A stretch of DNA of 32,000 nucleotides, taken from NCBI GenBank assembly GCA_017934955.1, contig JAGBIO010000011.1, positions 1 through 32,000 of the forward strand. The letters are read 5' to 3'. Origin of the DNA: Clostridia bacterium (GTDB lineage: Bacteria; Bacillota; Clostridia; TANB77; RGIG9151). The position numbers and the translations under genes were made by a program. Below, one piece after another: positions 3,481 to 32,000 of the stretch (position 1 is its first letter; every line of letters begins with the position of its first letter). The notes beneath the pieces were generated by a model. That model worked only from the letters and a program-made list of their open reading frames with translations, was not told where the DNA came from and ran no database searches.

Positions 3481-4620
3481 TTAATAAGGAGGGTTCTTTT
3501 TTTTCTGCAAGAAATGAATTTGAAAAATTTTAAATATACTCGAAAACAGCAGTAAAGTCAATATTACAGACAGAATCAGATTAATTTCCGATTCAGTGTA
3601 GGCGGGTGTTGTTGCGACGACAGATGTGGTTAAAAGGGTAGAGAAATTCGTTTTCCACAGGAAAAGCCAAGTAATCATTCCGGAGAAAAGACTTTGTATT
3701 ATTTTACCTGTTAAGTAGCGCAAAAAAGATATATTGGTGTCGGAAAGGACGCTGAGTGTTTGCATATGAATGCTGAATCCGGCGAAACTAACTAACATTG
3801 AAGTGATGATTAGTTTATAAAGTAATGGTATAGAAAGTGTTGCAACTTTATTGACACCGTTTGTAACTTCCAATAATCCGGTTAAGATAGAGTAAGAAGT
3901 TTGTGTTTCGATTTTAGGAAAGAGAATTTTTGATAACAACAGTAAAATGCCGGTCTTTTCTAATATAGCGGAAAAAATCGAAAAAGTGAGAATGAATCCG
4001 CCGATGACGCAGATTAATTGAATCGAATGTTTGATGGTTTCGGTTAAAATTCCACTTAGTTTGGAAAGACGAATGACTTCAAAACGGATGGGAGAGGATG
4101 CTGTGGTTTGTGATTCGGTTTCCTTTTTAAAAAAGCGAAACAGGAAGCCTGTAAAGAAGGCAGCAAGATAATGAGATAGAAGAAGGAGAAGTCCGATGGT
4201 TGTGTTTTGGTATAATCCGATTCCGATAGCCCCTAATATAAACAATGGACCGGAATTATTGACAAAGGTAATCAGATGATTTGCTGCGTTTTGGGAAATA
4301 GCATTATTTTTGAGTAAATCCGCAGTCGTTTTCGCACCAATCGGATAACCGCCGGTCATTCCTAAGAAAACGGCAATGGAAGAGACACCGGGAAGATGAA
4401 AGAGTATTTTCATAACAGGTGCAAAAAGCTTTCCGAAAAGATAAGGAAGTGCGGATTTTGTAATTAAGTCGGAAAGAATCAAAAAAGGAAGAAGAGAAGG
4501 CACAATAACGTTATACCAAAGCGTCAAACCGGATTTTGTTGCCGCAATCATATCCTGCGGAAAGACAATACAGAATACGGCGATGATAAAGATCGTAATG
4601 CTAAAGAAATATTTTTTCAT
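3481..4620 (-). CDS. ylbJ: sporulation integral membrane protein YlbJ-like (nucleoside-recognition/Gate domain)
   Basis: Polytopic membrane protein. The start was moved to MKKYFFSITIF (ATG complement at 4618-4620), which has a GGAG RBS (complement of 4629-4632). The track's longer start at 4716 would run through the divergent relA promoter region. The family assignment rests on the TKSGLTLWYNVIVPSLLPFLILS pattern, from memory. Confidence 0.65.
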   Translation of the reverse strand: MKKYFFSITIFIIAVFCIVFPQDMIAATKSGLTLWYNVIVPSLLPFLILSDLITKSALPYLFGKLFAPVMKILFHLPGVSSIAVFLGMTGGYPIGAKTTADLLKNNAISQNAANHLITFVNNSGPLFILGAIGIGLYQNTTIGLLLLLSHYLAAFFTGFLFRFFKKETESQTTASSPIRFEVIRLSKLSGILTETIKHSIQLICVIGGFILTFSIFSAILEKTGILLLLSKILFPKIETQTSYSILTGLLEVTNGVNKVATLSIPLLYKLIITSMLVSFAGFSIHMQTLSVLSDTNISFLRYLTGKIIQSLFSGMITWLFLWKTNFSTLLTTSVVATTPAYTESEINLILSVILTLLLFSSIFKIFQIHFLQKKKNPPY

Positions 4621-6895: not shown

Positions 6896-6899
6896 GAGT

Positions 6900-7081
6900 G
6901 GACACAATAAATTGTGTCCGTACAGGTAGGTAGAGGTATGATTCAAAGGTGGACAGCATGAATGCTGTCCGTACGGATACTATTGAATGAAAAGGTAGAA
7001 ATGTGATTGAATGCTGTCCGTACGGATACTATTGAATGAAAAGGTAGAAATGTGATTGTAGGGACGGCATTTATGCTGTCC
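6900..7081. repeat. REP-like palindrome cluster (relA-dtd gap)
   Basis: Type B GGACACAATAAATTGTGTCC at 6900-6919 (followed by GTAC). Type A GGACAGCATGAATGCTGTCC at 6951-6970 (followed by GTAC). A perfect 49-bp tandem duplication at 6961-7009 / 7010-7058 re-copies the right half of the palindrome. A degenerate type A, GTAG+GGACGGCATTTATGCTGTCC, is at 7058-7081. Confidence 0.95.
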
Positions 7082-7103
7082 GTGGAAGGAATCGGTGTGT
7101 AGT

Positions 7104-7550
7104 ATGAGAGTCGTAGTGCAAAGAGTGAAATATGCGTCAGTAAAAGTAGATGGAGCAGTAAAGGGTGAAATCGGACAAGGTCTTTTGGCGTTGATTGGTG
7201 TAAAAGAAGGCGATACCGAGAAGGATTTACAGTTTTGTGTGAAAAAATTGGTGAATTTGAGAATCTTTAAGGATAACGAAGATAAGATGAACTTGTCGGT
7301 ACAAGATATCGGCGGCGAGTTGTTATTGATTTCTCAATTTACCTTATATGGTGATTGCCGAAAGGGAAACCGTCCAAGCTTTATTATGGCGGAGGCGCCG
7401 GAAAAGGCGAATGCGATGTATGAGAAGTTCATTGAGATGGTGAAGGAAACCGGTTTGAAGACGGAAAAAGGCGTTTTTGGCGCGGATATGAAAGTAGAGT
7501 TGCTTAATGACGGTCCGGTGACAATTATTATTGAGAGTCCGGGAGAGTAG
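7104..7550 (+). CDS. dtd: D-aminoacyl-tRNA deacylase
   Basis: [17 protein letters not shown]...[17 protein letters not shown]...NDGPVT is a classic Dtd sequence. ATG 7104 gives the canonical MRVVVQRV N-terminus. The relA-dtd adjacency is typical of Firmicutes. Confidence 0.9.
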
Positions 7551-7553
7551 CTT

Positions 7554-7609
7554 GGACAGCATAAATGCTGTCCGTACAGAAAACCGTAGGGACAGCATTC
7601 ATGCTGTCC
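7554..7609. repeat. REP-like palindrome pair (dtd-MBL gap)
   Basis: Type A at 7554-7573 (GGACAGCATAAATGCTGTCC+GTAC). Type A at 7590-7609 (GTAG+GGACAGCATTCATGCTGTCC). Confidence 0.95.
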
Positions 7610-7638
7610 ATGAAATAGCAGAGTACTGGGGGAACGTT

Positions 7639-8247
7639 ATGATTCAGCGATTTGTGGTTGGCGCGATACAGACGAATTGTTATGTGTTTTTTGATGAGGT
7701 ATCAAAAGAGGCTATGATTGTAGATCCCGGATATTTTGAGGAGAGAATTTGTACTTTTATTGAAGAACATCAATTAAAGCCGAAGTGTATTTATTTGACA
7801 CATTGTCATTTTGATCATATTTTGGGTGTGAAGGAATTGAAGAAACGCTATGAGATTCCTGTTTATTCCTCTGCTTTGGAGGAAATGAATTTGATGAATG
7901 ATGCGGTGAATTTATCGACATATATGTCAGGGGAATGTGTGAAAATTCCTTGTGATAAGGTGTTTTTCGAAAATGATGAATTTGAGATTGGAGCGACTTG
8001 CTTTCGTGTTTTGGAAACGCCGGGACATACCGCAGGCTCCAGCTGTTTGTATGCGGATAAAATTTTGTTTTCGGGAGATACCATGTTTTGTGATACTTAC
8101 GGAAGGTGCGATTTACCGACGGGAAATGAGAGACAGATTGTGCAGTCGATTAAGACAAAGCTGTTGACTTTGCGGGGAGATACGATTGTCTATCCGGGGC
8201 ATGGAGAGATGACCACGATTGGAGAATTTGCTGAATTGGAACTTTAG
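7639..8247 (+). CDS. MBL-fold metallo-hydrolase (glyoxalase II-like)
   Basis: HxHxDH motif (THCHFDH), plus TPGHTAGS and PGHG. The start was moved to ATG 7639 (MIQRFVVG, GGGGGA upstream). The track's 7531 start reads through two repeat hairpins. Confidence 0.75.
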   Translation: MIQRFVVGAIQTNCYVFFDEVSKEAMIVDPGYFEERICTFIEEHQLKPKCIYLTHCHFDHILGVKELKKRYEIPVYSSALEEMNLMNDAVNLSTYMSGECVKIPCDKVFFENDEFEIGATCFRVLETPGHTAGSSCLYADKILFSGDTMFCDTYGRCDLPTGNERQIVQSIKTKLLTLRGDTIVYPGHGEMTTIGEFAELEL

Positions 8248-8266
8248 GACACAATTTATTGTGTCC
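8247..8266. repeat. REP-like palindrome, type B, overlapping the MBL stop codon
   Basis: GGACACAATTTATTGTGTCC. Its first G is the last base of the TAG stop (8245-8247). Confidence 0.95.
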
Positions 8267-10330: not shown

Positions 10331-10345
10331 GCACAAACGTTGGGA

Positions 10346-10457
10346 GGACAGCATGAATGCTGTCCGTACGGAAAAAATGCACAACCACTGTAGGGACAGC
10401 ATTCATGCTGTCCACAAAATAGGCACAATCATCGTAGGGACACAATTTATTGTGTCC
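10346..10457. repeat. REP-like palindrome cluster (PHP-murB gap)
   Basis: Type A at 10346-10365 (+GTAC). Type A at 10394-10413 (GTAG+...+AC). Type B at 10438-10457 (GTAG+GGACACAATTTATTGTGTCC+AC). Confidence 0.95.
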
Positions 10458-10475
10458 ACCGAAGGAGGAATTTCT

Positions 10476-11378
10476 TTGTATCAGGAATTAATCAATACTT
10501 TATCGAAAACAGAAGTTTTATTAGAGGAACGTATGGCAAATCATACTTCTTTTCGTATTGGCGGACCGGCGGATTTGTTTTGTGCGGTGAATTCGAAGGA
10601 AGATTTGAAGAAGATCCTTGGTTATACAAAAGAGAAACAAATTCCGCTTTTGATAGTAGGAAACGGTAGTAATTTATTGGTTTCGGATAAGGGATTTCGT
10701 GGAATCGTGTTAAAACTCGGTGAGGCGTTTTCTTCTCTTTCGGTAGAAGGAAGTTCGATTATAGCGGGTGCAGCGGTTGATTTACGGAGGCTTTGCAGAT
10801 TTGCTTTAGAAAATTCGCTTACCGGAATGGAGTGGGCGTACGGGATTCCGGGGACGCTTGCCGGTGCGGTTTTTATGAATGCAGGCGCGTATGGAGGAGA
10901 GTTTTCGCAGATTTTGGAATCGACAACTTATTGGGAGGAAGATTTTGCGGAAAAAGAAATCAGTAATCAAGAGCATGATTTTTCCTATCGGACCAGCGTA
11001 TTTCAGAAGGAGAAAAAAAATGCGATTATTTTGTCCGCGAAAGTGAAATTAAGTCAAGGAAATCCGGCAGAAATTGAGGCGAAAATGAAGGATTATATGG
11101 AGCGTCGTATCACGAAGCAGCCGCTAAATTTGCCGAGTGCGGGAAGTGTATTTCGCAGACCGGAGAATGCTTATGTGGGGCAGATGGTGGAGGAGCTTGG
11201 GCTAAAGGGCTTCTCGATTGGTGGTGCGCAGGTGTCGGAAAAACATGCGGGATTTATTGTGAATACCGGCAAGGCATCTTGTGAAGATGTGAAGCATTTA
11301 ATACAATATATACAGAGGAAAGTAGAAGAACAGTATGGGATTAAGTTAAAAACAGAAGTAAGGGAGGTAGGAGAATGA
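10476..11378 (+). CDS. murB: UDP-N-acetylenolpyruvoylglucosamine reductase
   Basis: MANHTSFRIGGPADLF...LLIVGNGSNLL...GIPGTLAGAVFMNAGAYGGE...PSAGSVFRRP are MurB motifs. The proposed start is TTG 10476, 6 nt after GAAGGAGGA (10461-10469). The track's 10353 start runs through three repeat hairpins. ATG at the MANHTS position is an alternative. Confidence 0.85.
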   Translation: MYQELINTLSKTEVLLEERMANHTSFRIGGPADLFCAVNSKEDLKKILGYTKEKQIPLLIVGNGSNLLVSDKGFRGIVLKLGEAFSSLSVEGSSIIAGAAVDLRRLCRFALENSLTGMEWAYGIPGTLAGAVFMNAGAYGGEFSQILESTTYWEEDFAEKEISNQEHDFSYRTSVFQKEKKNAIILSAKVKLSQGNPAEIEAKMKDYMERRITKQPLNLPSAGSVFRRPENAYVGQMVEELGLKGFSIGGAQVSEKHAGFIVNTGKASCEDVKHLIQYIQRKVEEQYGIKLKTEVREVGE

Positions 11379-12356: not shown

Positions 12357-12587
12357 ATGACACTTACAGTTGTTTCGGGTGTGATTTGTTTAGCTTCAAT
12401 GTTATGGTTGGTATTGCGTCAACCGAAGGAAGGGAAACGTAAAAATGCGTTTGCTGTGATTGTGTTGGTGATTTCTTTTCCGGTGATGGTTGCCGGTGGG
12501 ATTATAAATATGCAAAATCCGGAGGATGAGATAAAGTTGGCTAAGGAAAGTAAATATGAAGTTGTTGGAATGAATTTGGCGGAGTAG
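12357..12587 (+). CDS. hypothetical small membrane protein (two predicted TM helices)
   Basis: A 76-aa ORF with AAGGGGG RBS (12343-12349), a near-consensus promoter upstream (12252-12280) and a terminator downstream (12607-12634). No family recognised. Confidence 0.5.
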   Translation: MTLTVVSGVICLASMLWLVLRQPKEGKRKNAFAVIVLVISFPVMVAGGIINMQNPEDEIKLAKESKYEVVGMNLAE

Positions 12588-12606
12588 AGAAAGTTAAATT
12601 CTTGGG

Positions 12607-12634
12607 AAAGGGCAGAGATTTTCTGCTCTTTTTG
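12607..12634 (+). terminator. intrinsic terminator after the small membrane ORF
   Basis: The stem AAAGGGCAGA / TCTGCTCTTT has one G-U pair and a 5-nt loop, and is followed by a T-rich run. Confidence 0.55.
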
Positions 12635-12653: not shown

Positions 12654-12823
12654 AGAATACAGATTAGATTTAATTTTTTTGCAATGATGACACAAACGTT
12701 GTAGGGACAGCATTCATGCTGTCCACAGAAAAAGGCAGAAAAGCAGGACAGCATAAATGCTGTCCCTACAATAGACTGAGAAACATTTAAGGTACATATA
12801 TAAGGTTAAGTCTGACCAGCTAC
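12654..12823. mobile_element. MITE-like composite element, copy A
   Basis: It has a degenerate left end ACAGATTAGATTTAAT (12659-12674), the A-A doublet, and then the conserved right arm CCCTACAATAGACTGAGAAACATTTAAGGTACATATATAAGGTTAAGTCTGACC (to about 12817). Confidence 0.55.
12701..12769. repeat. REPIN-like inverted doublet of type A palindromes
   Basis: The sequence is GTAGGGACAGCATTCATGCTGTCC-ACAGAAAAAGGCAGAAAAGCA-GGACAGCATAAATGCTGTCCCTAC. The two 24-nt arms are reverse complements of each other except for one loop base. Confidence 0.95.
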
Positions 12824-12909: not shown

Positions 12910-14925
12910 ATGGAGCAGGAAAACAGAAGAATTTCGAATCGGCTGGTTTCAAAAGATTGGATTTATTTGACGGTTATTTTTATATTAATCGCCATTATTG
13001 GTGTTTTAAATCATAATTTTATTGTGATTGGCGGCTTTTTTTGGTTCTTGATGTTGTTTTATTCGTTATATTCGAACGGAAAGCGAAAAGAGGAAATTGA
13101 GGGTTATATTGAGAATTTGACCTTTAATATGGATTCGGTGACGAAGGATACTTTACTGAATTTTCCGCTTCCGATGCTGACGTTGGAATTAAACGGTATG
13201 ATTATTTGGCACAATTTACTGTTTCAGAAATTGGTGCAGGAAGATTCAATTGTGGAACGATATATTTATGAATTTATGGAAGAATTAAGACCGGAAAATC
13301 TTATTAAGAACAATAAAATTATACCGGTTACGGTAAATTATAAGAATAAAGTTTATAAAGTTTTGGGAAATTTGGTGAGAACGAACCAGAAAAGTGAGAA
13401 GGAACATTATACGCTGTCGTTGTATTTTATTGATATGACAGAGTATAACATGCTTCTGAAAAAGCATTTTGAAGAGGAACCGGATATCGGAGTCGTAATT
13501 ATTGATAATTACGATGAATTGATGCAGGGCGTGGAAGACTCCGATCGTTCGCAGTTACTTGCGGAGATTGATAAGCGTTTGAAGCAGTGGTTTGCGTTTA
13601 CGAACGGGATTGTAAGAAAGTATGAGCGAGACAAGTACATTATGTTATTTGAGTCGAAGTACTTGGCGGAAATGGAAGAGAAGAAGTTTGAAATTTTGGA
13701 TTCTGTGAAGGAAATTGAATTGGAGAATAATTTCCAAGTAACGCTTAGTATCGGTATTGCGTCAGAAATGACGGATTTTGCGGATGGAATGAAGGAAGCT
13801 TTGGATGCAATCGAATTGGCTCTTGGTCGTGGCGGAGATCAAGTTGCGATTAATAAGAATAACGAATATGAGTTCTTTGGCGGTCGCAGTAAAGAAATTG
13901 AGAAGAGAACGCGTGTAAAAGCACGTGTTATGGCGACGGCTTTGGAAAAGTTGATAGAACAGAGTGAAAATGTTGTGATTATGGGGCATGCGAATCCGGA
14001 TGCGGATTCTTTGGGAGCGTCGCTTGGACTGTTTCGGGTGGCGCAATGCTTAAATCGTGAGGCAAAGATTGCGTTAAATGAAGCGGGGACGGCAAATGTA
14101 AAGGATATGTTGGAACGAATTGAAAATTCAGGACAGTACGAGAACGTATTTATTGGGAAAAATGAGGCTTTGGAATATACGAAGCAGGATACGTTGCTGA
14201 TTGTGGTAGATACGCATCGTGCGTCTTTTACCGAAGTGCCGGATTTGTTGGATCGAACGAAGAAAGTGGTTGTAATCGATCATCATAGAAAAGTAACGGA
14301 CTTTATTGGAGACGCGATTTTAACGTATCATGAAATTTATGCTTCTTCTGCGTGCGAGTTAGTGACAGAGTTGTTACAGTATATGGATAAGCGGGTAACC
14401 ATTCGTCAAATAGAAGCAGAGGCACTGTATGCCGGAATTATTATTGATACGAAGAATTTTACCTTAAAAACAGGTATTCGTACCTTCGAAGCAGCTGCAT
14501 TTTTGAAGAAGTACGGTGTGGATACGATTGCTGTAAAACAGTTATTTAAAAATGATATCGGTACGTATGTGCAGAAAGCTGAAATTGTAAAAAATGCGGA
14601 GATTTTTGATGATGAAATTGCAATTTCAAAGTGTGAAACCGAGTTATTAAATACCAGCTTGGTTGTGGCGCAGGCGGCAGATGATTTGTTAAATATCAAA
14701 GGAATCAAGGCTTCTTTTGTCCTTTCCCCGAATGATAGTCGAATTGTGATTAGCGGAAGATCGCTTGGGGATATTAATGTGCAGATGATTTTGGAAAAAT
14801 TGGGCGGTGGCGGAAGTATGACGATTGCCGGCGCACAAGTTCCGAATGTAACGATTGATGAGGCAGTGGAACAATTAAAGGCTGCGATTAAGGAATATAA
14901 AGAGAATTTGACATCTGAAGTGTAG
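12910..14925 (+). CDS. gdpP: c-di-AMP phosphodiesterase GdpP (YybT; TM-PAS-degenerate GGDEF-DHH/DHHA1)
   Basis: Two N-terminal TM helices and a central GGDEF-like region (SIGIA...GRGGDQV). DHH motifs are present (MGHANPDADSLGAS, VVDTHR, DHH at VIDHHRK) with a DHHA1 tail (GGGGSMTIAG). The gdpP-rplI-dnaB order matches B. subtilis yybT-rplI-dnaC. AGGAGG precedes ATG 12910. Confidence 0.8.
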   Translation: MEQENRRISNRLVSKDWIYLTVIFILIAIIGVLNHNFIVIGGFFWFLMLFYSLYSNGKRKEEIEGYIENLTFNMDSVTKDTLLNFPLPMLTLELNGMIIWHNLLFQKLVQEDSIVERYIYEFMEELRPENLIKNNKIIPVTVNYKNKVYKVLGNLVRTNQKSEKEHYTLSLYFIDMTEYNMLLKKHFEEEPDIGVVIIDNYDELMQGVEDSDRSQLLAEIDKRLKQWFAFTNGIVRKYERDKYIMLFESKYLAEMEEKKFEILDSVKEIELENNFQVTLSIGIASEMTDFADGMKEALDAIELALGRGGDQVAINKNNEYEFFGGRSKEIEKRTRVKARVMATALEKLIEQSENVVIMGHANPDADSLGASLGLFRVAQCLNREAKIALNEAGTANVKDMLERIENSGQYENVFIGKNEALEYTKQDTLLIVVDTHRASFTEVPDLLDRTKKVVVIDHHRKVTDFIGDAILTYHEIYASSACELVTELLQYMDKRVTIRQIEAEALYAGIIIDTKNFTLKTGIRTFEAAAFLKKYGVDTIAVKQLFKNDIGTYVQKAEIVKNAEIFDDEIAISKCETELLNTSLVVAQAADDLLNIKGIKASFVLSPNDSRIVISGRSLGDINVQMILEKLGGGGSMTIAGAQVPNVTIDEAVEQLKAAIKEYKENLTSEV

Positions 14926-14977
14926 GACACAATAAATTGTGTCCGTACAGAGAAAGTGGCACAAACGGATTGTGTCC
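14925..14977. repeat. REP-like palindromes (gdpP-rplI gap)
   Basis: Type B at 14925-14944; its first base is the last base of the gdpP TAG stop, and GTAC follows. A degenerate type B, GGCACAAACGGATTGTGTCC, is at 14958-14977. Confidence 0.9.
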
Positions 14978-14996
14978 GCAGAAAAGGGGCGAGAGT

Positions 14997-15443
14997 ATGA
15001 AAGTTATTTTGTTAAAAGATGTGAAGGCGCTTGGAAAAAAGGGACAAGTCGTAGAGGTAAGCGAAGGATATGCGAATAACTTTTTGTTAAAGACGAAGTC
15101 TGCTGTTATAGCGAACGCGCAAAATATGAATGTGTTAAAGACGCAGGAAGGTTCGAAAATGTATAAAAGAGAGCGGGATTTTGAGGAAGCAAAGCATCTT
15201 GCGGAGAAAATGAAGGATATTGTTTTGAAGTTTACCGTGAAGGCGGGAGAGGGCGGAAGACTTTTCGGTTCTGTTACTTCGAAAGATATTGCGGATAAAT
15301 TGTTGAAGGATTATAAGATTGAGACCGACAAGAAGAAAGTTTATTTGGAGGATGCGATTAAGATAGCGGGAATTACCGAAGTGGAGATTAAACTTTTTGA
15401 GGGGGTAATTGCGAAGATAAAGGTACAGGTGTCGGCGGAGTGA
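14997..15443 (+). CDS. rplI: 50S ribosomal protein L9
   Basis: MKVILLKDVKALGKKGQVVEVSEGYANNFL is the canonical L9 N-terminus. The start was moved from the track's 14937, which lies inside the repeat, to ATG 14997. Confidence 0.9.
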   Translation: MKVILLKDVKALGKKGQVVEVSEGYANNFLLKTKSAVIANAQNMNVLKTQEGSKMYKRERDFEEAKHLAEKMKDIVLKFTVKAGEGGRLFGSVTSKDIADKLLKDYKIETDKKKVYLEDAIKIAGITEVEIKLFEGVIAKIKVQVSAE

Positions 15444-15450
15444 GAATTGA

Positions 15451-15559
15451 GGACAGCATGAATGCTGTCCGTACAGAGGAAAGAGGCAGAACGTATGGAC
15501 ACAATAAATTGTGTCCGTACGGAGAGAGGCAGAATGTATGGACACAATAAATTGTGTCC
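15451..15559. repeat. REP-like palindrome cluster (rplI-dnaB gap) with tandem unit
   Basis: Type A at 15451-15470. Type B at 15497-15516 and 15540-15559. The spacer plus type B unit is tandemly repeated (15471-15516, 46 nt; 15517-15559, 43 nt). Confidence 0.95.
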
Positions 15560-15590
15560 ATTGAACAATTGATTAGTTAGGAGAGTATAT

Positions 15591-16934: not shown

Positions 16935-16960
16935 AAGTGTTTTGCGTAGGCAAAACACTT
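16935..16960 (-). terminator. terminator hairpin at the end of X1 (T-tract on the minus strand only)
   Basis: An 11-bp stem AAGTGTTTTGC / GCAAAACACTT with loop GTAG. The A-run at 16930-16934 gives a U-tract only for minus-strand transcripts. On the + strand it sits 4 nt after the dnaB stop but lacks a U-tract. Confidence 0.55.
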
Positions 16961-17067
16961 GCGCCGAACGCGAGTTGCGCAGCAAAATTCCTTTCGCGTG
17001 AGTGTGCTTCCCCACGGAGCGTTTTTTATTGTATAGGCAAAATCTTTGATTTTTCCTATACAATAAA
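16935..17067 (-). repeat. X-family repeat, copy X1 (about 130 nt, minus-strand sense, ends in terminator hairpin)
   Basis: The reverse complement reads TTTATTGTATAGG-loop-CCTATACAATAAAAAACGCTCCGTGGGGAAGCACACTCACGCGAAAGGAATTTTGCTGCGCAACTCGCGTTCGGCGCAAGTGTTTTGCCTACGCAAAACACTTTTTTT. It aligns by eye along its length with 19621-19731. Confidence 0.7.
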
Positions 17068-17532: not shown

Positions 17533-17679
17533 CTATGACTAAATTAGAACAAAAGTGGATAGCATGAATGCTGTCCGAAGAATAGGCAGATAGTAGAAAT
17601 AGGACACAATAAATTGTGTCCCTACAATAGATTAAGAAACATTCGAGGTACAGGTGTAAATTTAAGTCTGAACTGTAAC
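17528..17679. mobile_element. MITE-like composite element, copy B
   Basis: The left end is GTAAACTATGACTAAATTAG (17528-17547). Two hairpins follow. The right arm CCCTACAATAGATTAAGAAACATTCGAGGTACAGGTGTAAATTTAAGTCTGAACTGTAAC closely matches copy A. Confidence 0.55.
17557..17625. repeat. REP-like palindromes (orf113-tilS gap)
   Basis: A degenerate type A, GGATAGCATGAATGCTGTCC, is at 17557-17576. Type B GGACACAATAAATTGTGTCC is at 17602-17621, followed by CTAC. A half-palindrome remnant, GAATGCTGCCCGTA, lies near 17684-17697. Confidence 0.9.
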
Positions 17680-21588: not shown

Positions 21589-21604
21589 TATTGTAAGGAT
21601 ATTA

Positions 21605-21670
21605 GGACACAATGAATTGTGTCCGTACATAAAAAGCAGATGTGTTGTAGGAACACAATTTATTGTGTCC
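21605..21670. repeat. REP-like palindromes (ftsH-acpS gap)
   Basis: Type B GGACACAATGAATTGTGTCC at 21605-21624 (+GTAC). A type B copy with a 1-nt bulge, GTAG+GAACACAATTTATTGTGTCC, at 21647-21670. Confidence 0.9.
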
Positions 21671-21704
21671 GTATAAAGTCTGGTGTAATGACTGGGGTGA
21701 TAAT

Positions 21705-22886: not shown

Positions 22887-23144
22887 GTTACAGGTTAGAC
22901 TCAAATTTATAAAGAAGGCACAATCCTGTAGGGACAGCATTTATGCTGTCCACAGAAAAGGCAGAAAGGCAGGACAGCATAAATGCTGTCCCTACAAATA
23001 ACTTTCCACTGATACCGTAGGGACACAATTTATTGTGTCCTAATTCTAATAGCAGGCTATTTCGTGGACACAATAGATTGTGTCCCTACAAAGGAATACA
23101 GGACATTTCGTACATATAGAAAATTATTAAGTCTGAGCCCTAAC
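22887..23144. mobile_element. Non-coding composite element with terminal inverted repeats (MITE-like), copy E1
   Basis: The left end is GTTACAGGTTAGACTCAAATTTATAAA (22887-22913). The right end is TATAGAAAATTATTAAGTCTGAGCCCTAAC (23115-23144), which is related to it in inverted orientation. A 52-nt internal block (23017-23068) matches E2 29600-29651 at 50 of 52 positions. Confidence 0.65.
22928..23089. repeat. Two REPIN-like doublets (A-A and B-B) in the yqeY-infC gap
   Basis: A-A doublet at 22928-22995 (hairpins 22932-22951 and 22972-22991, flanked by GTAG and CTAC). B-B doublet at 23017-23089 (hairpins 23021-23040 and 23066-23085, flanked by GTAG and CTAC), with spacer TAATTCTAATAGCAGGCTATTTCGT. 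Confidence 0.95.
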
Positions 23145-24663: not shown

Positions 24664-24741
24664 TATAATAGGAAATGTCATTTCCTATTATATAAAAACG
24701 CTCCGCAAGGAAGCACACTCGCACGTGCAGAATGGGTATGT
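24658..24741 (+). repeat. X-family repeat, 5' portion only (copy X3), preceded by a 41-nt perfect palindrome and abutted by a type A hairpin
   Basis: TATAAAAACGCTCCGCAAGGAAGCACACTCGCACGTG matches the first blocks of X1. The palindrome TTTTTATATAATAGGAAATG-T-CATTTCCTATTATATAAAAA spans 24658-24698. Homology is lost before the REP-like hairpin at 24742. Confidence 0.6.
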
Positions 24742-24761
24742 GGACAGCATGAATGCTGTCC
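24742..24761. repeat. REP-like palindrome, type A (rplT-mazG gap)
   Basis: GGACAGCATGAATGCTGTCC followed by GTAC. Confidence 0.95.
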
Positions 24762-24794
24762 GTACGTTAAGAGTAAAAGTAAGGAGGTTAAAAT

Positions 24795-27667: not shown

Positions 27668-27704
27668 TTTTTGTAATAAGAAGGCTTGTTTTGAATAGAA
27701 TGAA

Positions 27705-27729
27705 ATAGAGCGTAGTTGCTCTATTTTTT
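27705..27729 (+). terminator. intrinsic terminator after the amidase gene
   Basis: ATAGAGC-GTAGTT-GCTCTAT followed by TTTTT. Confidence 0.65.
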
Positions 27730-29539: not shown

Positions 29540-29769
29540 GTTTATTCATACTTAAATTTATAAAAATGGTTGTACAAACCGCTTTCTGCTGTTATTTTTG
29601 TAGGGACACAATTCATTGTGTCCTAATTCTAATAGCAGGCTATTCCGTGGAAAGTCATTTGTAGGGACAGCATTCATGCTGTCCTACATTCCGCATTTTC
29701 TGTGGACAGCATAAATGCTGTCCCTACAGTGTTTATACCATTTTTATAGCTTTAAGCCTGACTTGTAAC
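29540..29769. mobile_element. Non-coding composite element with terminal inverted repeats (MITE-like), copy E2
   Basis: The 25-nt ends at 29546-29570 (TCATACTTAAATTTATAAAAATGGT) and 29737-29761 (ACCATTTTTATAGCTTTAAGCCTGA) are reverse complements at 21 of 25 positions. The interior consists only of three REP-like hairpins plus spacers. There is no ORF. Confidence 0.7.
29600..29727. repeat. REP-like palindromes (rsmE-PilZ gap)
   Basis: Type B at 29604-29623 (GTAG+). An A-A doublet at 29661-29727 (hairpins 29665-29684 and 29704-29723). Its spacer is the reverse complement of the spacer used at 12725-12745 and 22952-22971. Confidence 0.95.
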
Positions 29770-29797
29770 GACCCTCATGCGAAATCGCTTGCTTAGG

Positions 29798-31614: not shown

Positions 31615-32000
<386 letters not shown>

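Follow-up and report, generated by a model that had tools for sequence, protein, structure and literature searches.

The 32,000-nt stretch of DNA considered here (hereafter the window), positions 1 to 32,000 of contig JAGBIO010000011.1 of a Clostridia bacterium (assembly GCA_017934955.1), carries numerous short palindromic hairpins in the spacers between its genes. The best-supported interpretation is that these hairpins are repetitive extragenic palindromic (REP) elements, gathered in clusters that resemble bacterial interspersed mosaic elements (BIMEs), and that those paired tail to tail are units of the REPIN type (REP doublets forming hairpins). Very likely, they are non-autonomous elements mobilised as single-stranded DNA (ssDNA) by a REP-associated tyrosine transposase (RAYT). 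As a kind they are ordinary, being already tabulated for RAYT subclass 2.4; it is their density that is unusual.

A search for the bare palindromes recovered 29 oriented hairpins in 32 kb, or about one per 1.1 kb, comprising 17 of type A (GGACAGCATnnATGCTGTCC) and 12 of type B (GGACACAATnnATTGTGTCC), where shuffled sequence would yield 0.00 and 0.01, respectively. The stem, GGACAGCA/TGCTGTCC or GGACACAA/TTGTGTCC, is perfectly paired and consists of 8 bp with a 4-nt loop or, read differently, of 9 bp around a loop of 2 nt. A foot lying 5' on the + strand goes with two pyrimidines in the loop, a foot on the other side with two purines. According to published rules, a canonical REP has GT[AG]G located 0-2 nt 5' of the hairpin foot, a paired basal stem of 7-20 nt, a loop of 2-5 nt, and at least three G/C among the first four stem bases (PMC6006769). 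The hairpins of the window agree with these rules in stem and loop, as well as in the GGAC that starts the stem (three G/C in four bases), and GTAG stands at distance 0 in 16 of the 29, the others having GTAC (9, all on the hairpin's 3' side on the + strand) or no such foot (4). Moreover, they are both extragenic and multicopy, as all 29 fall in intergenic DNA, in 13 spacers between 6.9 and 32 kb, and the depth of the arms is 500-900 times that of unique sequence.

Four tail-to-tail doublets of type-A hairpins (A/A) had been proposed in a preliminary description, and reading the window letter by letter at each of them confirmed all four:

12701-12769, + strand: the focal A/A doublet, GTAG-GGACAGCATTCATGCTGTCC-ACAGAAAAAGGCAGAAAAGCA-GGACAGCATAAATGCTGTCC-CTAC, with the 21-nt spacer ACAGAAAAAGGCAGAAAAGCA and depth edges at 12701 and 12770.

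22928-22995, + strand: A/A doublet with the spacer ACAGAAAAGGCAGAAAGGCA, loops TT/AA and arms that are exact reverse complements; repeat family D4.

31615-31677, + strand: decayed A/A doublet, arm 1 intact, arm 2 (31658-31677) reading GGACATCATGAATATTGTCC with three substitutions, GTGG in place of CTAC.

29661-29727, - strand: A/A doublet in the opposite orientation, with the spacer TACATTCCGCATTTTCTGT.

A fifth A/A doublet, also reversed, lies just past the window end on the source contig, at window-equivalent positions 34061-34127. The first two share the plan GTAG-GGACAGCATnnATGCTGTCC-(20-21 nt spacer)-GGACAGCATnnATGCTGTCC-CTAC and have 5' extensions, CACAAACGTT at 12691-12700, which is short and conserved, and AAATTTATAAAGAAGGCACAATCCT at 22903-22927. 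The spacer at 29661-29727 was thought to run in reverse-complement orientation, and indeed its reverse complement, ACAGAAAATGCGGAATGTA, equals the other spacers at 15 of 19 positions. When the five A/A units are aligned, the mean column identity is 81% and GTAGGGACAGCATT.ATGCTGTCCACAGAAAA is invariant. The spacer (consensus ACAGAAAAGGCAGAAAGCA) is free of palindromic constraint, yet it is conserved in all five local copies.

As ssDNA, each intact doublet forms a single long hairpin, as had been anticipated, with -23 to -27 kcal/mol and a z of about -10 (-22 to -27 when the A/A and B/B units are taken together), compared with -8.5 kcal/mol for a single REP and -11.5 for the decayed copy. That the two arms are reverse complements of each other, another of the earlier points, is true but weak as evidence, because each arm is itself a palindrome and the relation is nearly automatic; the inversion is shown solely by the loop (two pyrimidines versus two purines) and the one-sided GTAG foot. 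The decay suspected at 31658-31677 is real in that the stem is damaged, but the substitutions number three rather than two, and the CTAC is lost as well. This doublet sits immediately upstream of the ribosome-binding site of tgt.

Copy numbers were derived from the summed k-mer depth of Logan contigs from the source metagenomes aligned to the doublets. At the focal doublet, the depth is ~25-30 in the unique flanks, ~19,000 in arm 1, 3,900-4,600 in the spacer and ~12,500 in arm 2, jumping exactly at GTAG (12701) and falling after CTAC (12770). The doublet at 22928, whose spacer is closer to the consensus, gives ~21,900 and ~12,200 for its arms, 10,500-11,100 for its spacer and 180-470 for its longer flanks, and in the neighbouring doublet of type-B hairpins (B/B) the first arm reaches ~8,900 and the spacer 800-1,300. 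Relative to the unique flank in run X1 (~25), the A arms are therefore about 900-fold and 500-fold, the A/A spacer ~430-fold, and the B/B spacer equals ~30-50 copies. These values suggest, per genome-equivalent, ~430 A/A spacers, type-A hairpins well in excess of 1,000, and type-B hairpins in the several hundreds. Because the sequence is identical across three European Nucleotide Archive (ENA) assemblies and the Logan contigs, the repeats are not an assembly artefact.

The doublets hence show what defines a REPIN, namely two inverted REPs around a short spacer that fold into one long hairpin, with the whole doublet, spacer included, conserved (5/5) and repeated (~430-fold) beyond chance juxtaposition. 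The preliminary description would have been wrong had doublets been no commoner than random neighbours and the spacer unconserved genome-wide; the spacer depth and the sharp edges at GTAG and CTAC speak for the opposite. Together with the outward GTAG feet and the turnover described below, they support the REPIN-like reading. A metagenome-wide pattern for close A-A pairs, ATGCTGTCCN{12,32}GGACAGCAT, returned 120 stretches among the matches listed, all of them chance occurrences in unrelated DNA.

Orthologous loci, retrieved via homologues of QueA and YqeY, indicate that these elements come and go. In sister species with 90-94% protein identity, the REP content differs at the same sites, and relatives at 77-82% have none; the presence, absence or arrangement of REPs differs among close relatives at four orthologous spacers. 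Between yqeY and infC, where the window has an A/A and a B/B doublet, L230 and L231 (93% YqeY identity) have one single type-A hairpin, and neither L232 and L233 (93%) nor L234 (82%) has any; the doublet 22928-22995 itself is missing at the orthologous site of L230 and L232. Between queA and tgt, the doublet with the decayed arm is represented in L222 and L223 (91% QueA identity) by two tandem type-A REPs, the second of which lies exactly at the position of the decayed arm, before the same ribosome-binding site and with its loop flipped, while L221 (90%) has one decayed hairpin and L224 (77%) a bare 24-nt spacer with no REP. Likewise, the rplT-mazG, ftsH-acpS, gdpP-rplI, rplI-dnaB and dnaB-tilS spacers, which bear REPs in the window, are 10-80 nt long and mostly REP-free in relatives. 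The rplI-dnaB spacer, which harbours the array 15447-15563, is 13 nt in L234; in all, six spacers of L234 other than yqeY-infC and queA-tgt are 10-16 nt and REP-free. At the site of the pair 21601-21674, L230 has one different REP, L232 none and L234 a 16-nt spacer. L230 and L232 also lack the hairpin 24738-24765 at their orthologous site. In the relA-dtd cluster, depth is zero over 6982-7051 even for a strain with ~99.5% identity (run X4). With REP content differing among relatives at 90-94% and nil at 77-82%, the elements were most probably gained recently and within this lineage, and their turnover seems to continue.

The association with RAYTs comes from other genomes. In Table S1 of PMC6006769, the REPs of subclass 2.4 include GTAGGGACAGACTTTATGTCTGTCC, GTAGGGACACTCTGCGTGTGTCC and GTAGGGACGCACTGCGTGCGTCC; their foot and their GGAC...GTCC stem ends recur in the hairpins of the window. 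Judged by sequence, these hairpins belong to the REP type of RAYT subclass 2.4 / group 4 (GTAG + GG[AG]C...G[TC]CC). A palindrome scan of genome contigs, in which all counts refer to the matches listed, found the type-A palindrome in many genomes of several phyla, accompanied by a GT[AG]G foot in 63 of 70 Chloroflexota, 9 of 12 Clostridia and 8 of 9 Bacteroidota matches; the foot is missing in the two matches from Poribacteria, which are probably due to chance. Metagenome-assembled genomes (MAGs) of Chloroflexota, Bacteroidota and Clostridia (loci L003-L088) share all 20 nt of the type-A hairpin together with its GTAG foot. In Chloroflexota, its usual partner is a different hairpin (GTAGGGACG...), placed head-to-head in 51 of 63 cases and not tail-to-tail as in the window.

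At three loci, hairpins of this design accompany a RayT-family gene. In L083, from a Muribaculum MAG, the exact type-A hairpin with GTAG foot stands on both sides of an open reading frame (ORF) of 172 aa, with the hairpin foot overlapping the stop codon. The encoded protein carries MPNHFHAIV (NHFH), WQSRYYDHAIR (WQ) and YIRNN, corresponding to the subclass motifs NH[IFV]H, WQ and YIxNN. It has 283 relatives, some of which are named 'REP element-mobilizing transposase RayT' (the names gave almost no taxonomy), and its sole match in PDB is 4ER8, TnpArep; its match to NCBIfam NF047646 (E 2.5e-7) lies below the cut-off, and Pfam gave no family at E<=0.01 for either this ORF or E. coli RayT. In L086, from a Clostridia MAG, a RayT fragment adjoins a type-A hairpin and matches the profile of the L083 protein's relatives with an E of 2.8e-22. 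The third, a 997-nt contig, contains a RayT-family gene (L227:214-762) with tail-to-tail GTAG-hairpin-spacer-hairpin-CTAC doublets on both sides and a REP (GGACGCTGCACGCAGCGTCC-CTAC) inserted in frame within the ORF. Such protein motifs, an in-gene REP and double-foot forms are hallmarks of subclass 2.4 (PMC6006769), which equals Bertels' group 4. The L227 locus is a textbook subclass-2.4 REPtron.

How a RAYT would move these elements can be modelled on IS200/IS605 (IS608) and on the TnpA-REP enzymes (PMC8266576). By this analogy, the hairpin would fold wherever DNA becomes transiently single-stranded, for example on the lagging-strand template, which is taken to be the + strand because of the GC skew. 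A single-copy RAYT of the HUH/Y1 type, which the sequence type would place in subclass 2.4 / group 4, would bind the hairpin together with its GTAG foot, and the foot would act as a guide choosing a nearby dinucleotide, CT or CA, as the cleavage site. The tyrosine would then form a 5'-phosphotyrosine link, followed by strand transfer, such that single strands are cut and rejoined and a REP or a whole doublet is copied or moved to other intergenic DNA with no target duplication. Such cut-and-rejoin chemistry on single strands is presumed from those enzymes, a cognate RAYT is presumably encoded in the source genome, and the main replicating unit would be the doublet and not a lone REP. None of the five doublets has a target-site duplication (flanks CGTT/AATA, TCCT/AAAT, ATTT/AGTG and CAAT/TATT), and this absence is consistent with the single-strand chemistry of RAYTs.

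Several points weigh against mobilisation by a RAYT of this kind. Six-frame ORFs were searched by regular expression, by phmmer with E. coli RayT and by a hidden Markov model (HMM) built from 120 RayT relatives, and no RAYT was present in 49 kb of the source contig; across every compared locus, this search matched in L083 and L086 only, and no REP-derived peptides were found within the RayT matches. Two abundant RayT clusters considered as candidates for the source organism's own were rejected, as they come from other organisms with 46-47% GC, and the contigs of the source metagenome aligned to the L086 RayT DNA gave no match. In addition, nine hairpins carry GTAC rather than GT[AG]G, and a foot other than GT[AG]G impairs or redirects cleavage in the systems tested (PMC8266576). 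For group-4 RAYTs, the published flanking 16-mers are only modestly repeated, occurring ~14 times at the median (PMC5581495), and a population of ~1,000 copies would be atypical for the group. The copy numbers themselves are rough, and other community members could contribute to them; the contigs that enter the estimate carry the genome's own depth. Locally, the doublet, though dominant, is not an exclusive unit, as only 6 of the 16 adjacent hairpin pairs are tail-to-tail, next to 4 head-to-head and 6 tandem. Finally, no clean pair of empty and filled sites was obtained for any single doublet, and no joints marking an empty site of the focal doublet were found in more distant strains, where coverage is low and contigs break at repeats.

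Some of these points are shared by another explanation, in which the hairpins are relic or domesticated REPs that are immobile, have no active RAYT, and are maintained or tolerated because they serve the host, for example in mRNA 3'-end protection, protein binding or nucleoid organisation. This is unlikely, though it deserves more credit than the other alternatives. Besides the lack of a RAYT in the 49 kb, the nine non-canonical GTAC feet and some decayed copies would suit it, as would the location of the elements between same-direction genes, where they would be transcribed, and the linker motif GGCA[G/C]AA, which is almost always on the coding/leading strand and may be a binding site or a mere reflection of strand composition. 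However, the REP content differs among species of 90-94% identity and also among strains, which implies recent activity; the near-universal perfection of the stems argues for recent copying, and no hairpin is terminator-like on the coding strand. A host function and mobility are, moreover, compatible.

Alternatively, the hairpins might be non-autonomous derivatives akin to palindrome-associated or miniature inverted-repeat transposable elements (PATEs, MITEs), moved by an IS200/IS605 TnpA or some other transposase in place of a RAYT. The combination of hairpin and guide is common to IS200/IS605 ends, and subclass 1.1 TnpA(IS200) is well represented in Clostridia (PMC6006769); a second mobile repeat, element X (see below), is present in the same genome. 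Nonetheless, this is a distinctly improbable account, as foot (GTAG) and stem (GGAC...GTCC) agree with the REPs published for RAYT subclass 2.4, and hairpins like type A flank RayT-family genes in L083, L086 and L227, not IS200 genes. Neither target-site duplications nor terminal inverted repeats of the DDE type are seen, and a MITE of a DDE transposon is unlikely given that the flanks of the five doublets contain no shared direct repeat.

Convergent intrinsic terminators or regulatory hairpins, chance, or an assembly artefact can practically be dismissed: stable hairpins at gene ends in intergenic DNA do recall terminators, but the chance expectation is zero, the 20-nt palindromes are identical at 29 sites in both orientations with conserved spacers, independent assemblies agree in sequence, no T-tract follows any REP on the coding (+) strand as it does in genuine terminators elsewhere (e.g. 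12605-12633 and 27702-27727), and the hairpins have no Rfam match above threshold. Known RNA families were rejected as well, the only Rfam match in the window being the L20 leader and the doublets giving sub-threshold noise from eukaryotic microRNA hairpins only, and so were tRNA-related elements.

Mobilisation by a RAYT being preferred, the elements can be set beside the systems already described. Their nearest counterparts are the REPs of RAYT subclass 2.4 (Quentin et al. 2018), or group 4 (Bertels et al. 2017), such as GTAGGGACAGACTTTATGTCTGTCC with ACS97067.1 and GTAGGGACGCACTGCGTGCGTCC with AFU18914.1. They have in common a 5' GTAG directly on a short perfect hairpin that begins with GGAC and ends with GTCC, a loop of 3-5 nt, a total of ~24 nt, 'double foot' GTAG...CTAC forms, several REP subtypes per genome and a family scattered over many phyla. 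They differ in that the host here is an uncultured gut Clostridia, the copy number is far above the ~14 of the flanking 16-mers, the doublets have a type-specific conserved spacer, and no cognate RAYT was seen in the 49 kb searched of the source contig.

The preliminary description had likened the doublets to the REPINs of Pseudomonas and E. coli, a comparison that holds for the kind of element but not for the family, which is subclass 2.4 / group 4 and neither group 2 nor group 3. Like the REPINs of P. fluorescens and E. coli (RAYT groups 3 and 2, respectively), the doublets consist of two inverted REPs and a short spacer forming one long hairpin, are conserved as a whole in many copies, and are extragenic in both orientations. 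They differ from those REPINs in REP sequence and RAYT group; locally, doublets are about matched in frequency by singletons, tandem arrays and head-to-head pairs, and each arm is perfectly palindromic, so that arm-to-arm covariation is unusable as evidence. With E. coli BIMEs they share mosaic clusters, two REP types in alternating or tandem order and a few recurring linker motifs; the linker motif is here the purine-rich GGCA[G/C]AA, and the stems are perfect, without the bulge required by E. coli TnpA-REP (PMC8266576). The ends of IS200/IS605 resemble them in the subterminal hairpin, the 5' guide tetranucleotide, the lack of target-site duplication and, presumably, the single-strand chemistry, but here the two ends are alike, no transposase gene lies between the hairpins, and the foot is the RAYT-type GTAG.

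What is less expected is the host, as the REP literature searched treats Clostridia only for RAYT group 1 and IS200, and the density, given the link of group 4 to modestly repeated 16-mers; a literature search with the hairpin string returned unrelated primer sequences only. It is conceivable, though doubtful, that a recent and very large burst of group-4 (subclass 2.4) RAYT/REPIN elements has taken place in an uncultured herbivore-gut Clostridia lineage, leaving ~1,000 hairpins, one per ~1 kb, in most usable spacers. If so, RAYT and its recognition hairpin would have spread horizontally across phyla (Chloroflexota, Bacteroidota and Clostridia), group-4 RAYTs would be capable of expansions on the REPIN scale, and the view of REPIN-RAYT as a vertical system, essentially of groups 2 and 3 of Gammaproteobacteria, would be contradicted. 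As REP/REPIN biology rests almost wholly on Gammaproteobacteria, a REP-saturated gut Firmicute would be a useful second system, and its REP-free close relatives would make it suitable for studying genome invasion, the remodelling of gene spacing and gene ends, and the activity of group-4 RAYTs. There are practical consequences, too. The repeats fragment short-read assemblies, the contigs of relatives being mostly 1-6 kb, and they mislead gene callers by supplying a stop codon (gdpP) or an N-terminal extension (rplI).

The hairpin family extends beyond the doublets proposed at first, which are real but were accompanied by B-type doublets, head-to-head pairs, tandem arrays and singletons that had been missed. 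Complete tail-to-tail units comprise five A/A (four inside the window) and one B/B; the two arms of a unit never differ in type, and the A/A and B/B units each keep a conserved spacer of their own. The remaining members are as follows:

23017-23089, + strand: B/B tail-to-tail doublet, GTAG-GGACACAATTTATTGTGTCC-TAATTCTAATAGCAGGCTATTTCGT-GGACACAATAGATTGTGTCC-CTAC; repeat family D5.

29600-29651, + strand: half of a B/B doublet, consisting of the left arm and the B/B spacer, 96% identical to 23017-23068, the right arm missing and an A/A doublet abutting; family D5.

7550-7613, no strand assigned: A/A head-to-head pair, hairpin-GTAC-8 nt-GTAG-hairpin.

10342-10461, no strand assigned: cluster of three, an A hairpin with GTAC, GTAG-A and GTAG-B, with linkers carrying GCACAACCACT and AGGCACAATCATC; family D2.

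6896-7085, no strand assigned: relA-dtd spacer cluster, B hairpin-GTAC, A hairpin-GTAC, a 49-nt tandem duplication and GTAG-A (GGACGGCAT variant); family D6.

15447-15563, no strand assigned: three hairpins in tandem (A, B, B), spaced at periods of 46 and 43 nt and joined by the linkers GTAC-AGAGGAAAGAGGCAGAAC-GTAT and GTAC-GGAGAGAGGCAGAAT-GTAT.

17557-17625, no strand assigned: tandem pair, the first an A hairpin that is degenerate and footless (GGATAGCAT), the second a B hairpin with CTAC; family D7.

21601-21674, no strand assigned: B/B head-to-head pair, hairpin-GTAC-18 nt-GTAG-hairpin.

8247-8266, no strand assigned: single B hairpin without GTAG foot.

14921-14948, - strand: single B hairpin with GTAC foot, the stop TAG of gdpP (14923-14925) overlapping its first base.

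24738-24765, - strand: single A hairpin with GTAC foot in the rplT-mazG spacer.

The B/B spacer, TAATTCTAATAGCAGGCTATTTCGT, is 96% identical between its two copies. Both 29600-29727 and 22928-23089 pair a B/B element with an A/A doublet carrying the same 14-nt right flank (AAATrACTTTCCAC), and at 29600 there is no adjacent B arm, which gives the impression that an arm of one unit was invaded, or replaced, by the other. The cluster 10342-10461 consists of a head-to-head pair (10342-10417) followed by a tandem one (10390-10461). In the relA-dtd cluster, 6896-6974 is a tandem array and the A hairpin at 7058 was counted as a singleton; the exact 49-nt tandem duplication (6959-7007 and 7008-7056) copies half a REP together with its linker. 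Near this duplication, the gene table of L097 is shifted by -49 after relA despite identical DNA. Linkers outside doublets vary but have the common purine-rich core GGCA[G/C]AA, which is also located 3-5 nt upstream of many GTAG feet. In a small sample, the GTAG-footed REPs outside doublets almost all have the foot 5' on the + strand. At three REPs (12745-12772, 17601-17628 and 29703-29730), the hairpin arm, foot and flank (AGGACA-16 nt-TACAAT) make a weak sigma-70-like promoter matching 9 of 12 positions, the overall count of promoters being not above chance.

The window belongs to a chromosomal housekeeping region on a 249-kb source contig. Its gene order begins with fliK-flgD-flgE, relA, dtd, spoIID, murB, rapZ, gdpP, rplI, dnaB, tilS, hpt and ftsH and continues with acpS, rpsU, yqeY, infC-rpmI-rplT with the L20 leader, mazG, hup, an amidase gene, spoIIP, rsmE, the gene of a PilZ protein, queA and tgt. 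The host is a flagellated, spore-forming member of the Clostridia with a G+C content of 39%, and it turns up in metagenomes from the gut of cattle, goat and pig. Only three metatranscriptome runs contain 5-8% of the window's words, as contigs only. The GC skew is very strong, +0.30 to +0.39 in every 4-kb bin, and almost all genes lie on the G-rich strand. The REP-bearing spacers are between genes of the same direction. Hairpins are absent from the tightly packed flagellar operon. The region is flanked by REP-free islands of mobile elements at window-equivalent positions -7576 to -500 and 37900 to 41500, one of them with genes for a serine recombinase, a PemK toxin and helix-turn-helix (HTH) regulators, the other a phage integrase island. 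Where REPs affect gene ends (14923-14997, 10353-10480 and 7531-7620), their clusters hold the starts of mechanical ORFs for rplI, murB and a metallo-beta-lactamase-fold gene, giving spurious N-terminal extensions; the rplI ORF, for instance, has 168 aa in the window versus 148 aa in L234.

A few further features accompany the REPs. Between rapZ and the focal doublet lies what is probably a genuine small gene, an ORF of 76 aa (12357-12587) for a small hydrophobic protein, with a good intrinsic terminator after it (12605-12633). Downstream of the CTAC foot, ~50 nt are homologous between 12770-12815 and 17626-17671 (82% over 71 nt, family D7), reading AATAGAyTrAGAAACATTyrAGGTAC...TTAAGTCTGA. A related motif, TTAAGyCTGAayTGTAAC, closely precedes the strong promoter-like sites of gdpP, tilS and the PilZ gene and is kept in a relative (further positions noted are 29755-29775 and L222:3230-3250); candidate roles are those of a regulator site and of an UP-like element. 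Element X is a second, unrelated repeat of ~95 nt, found at 16935-17030 (+) with a partial reverse copy at 24698-24735, and consists of a GTGTTTTGCGTAGGCAAAACAC hairpin and ...GCGTGAGTGTGCTTCCCCACGGAGCGTTTTTT; its contig depth is 100-400 versus ~10 in the flanks. It looks mobile too, because it is present in the rpsU-yqeY spacer of L230 (L230:1490-1585) and absent from that of the window and L232.

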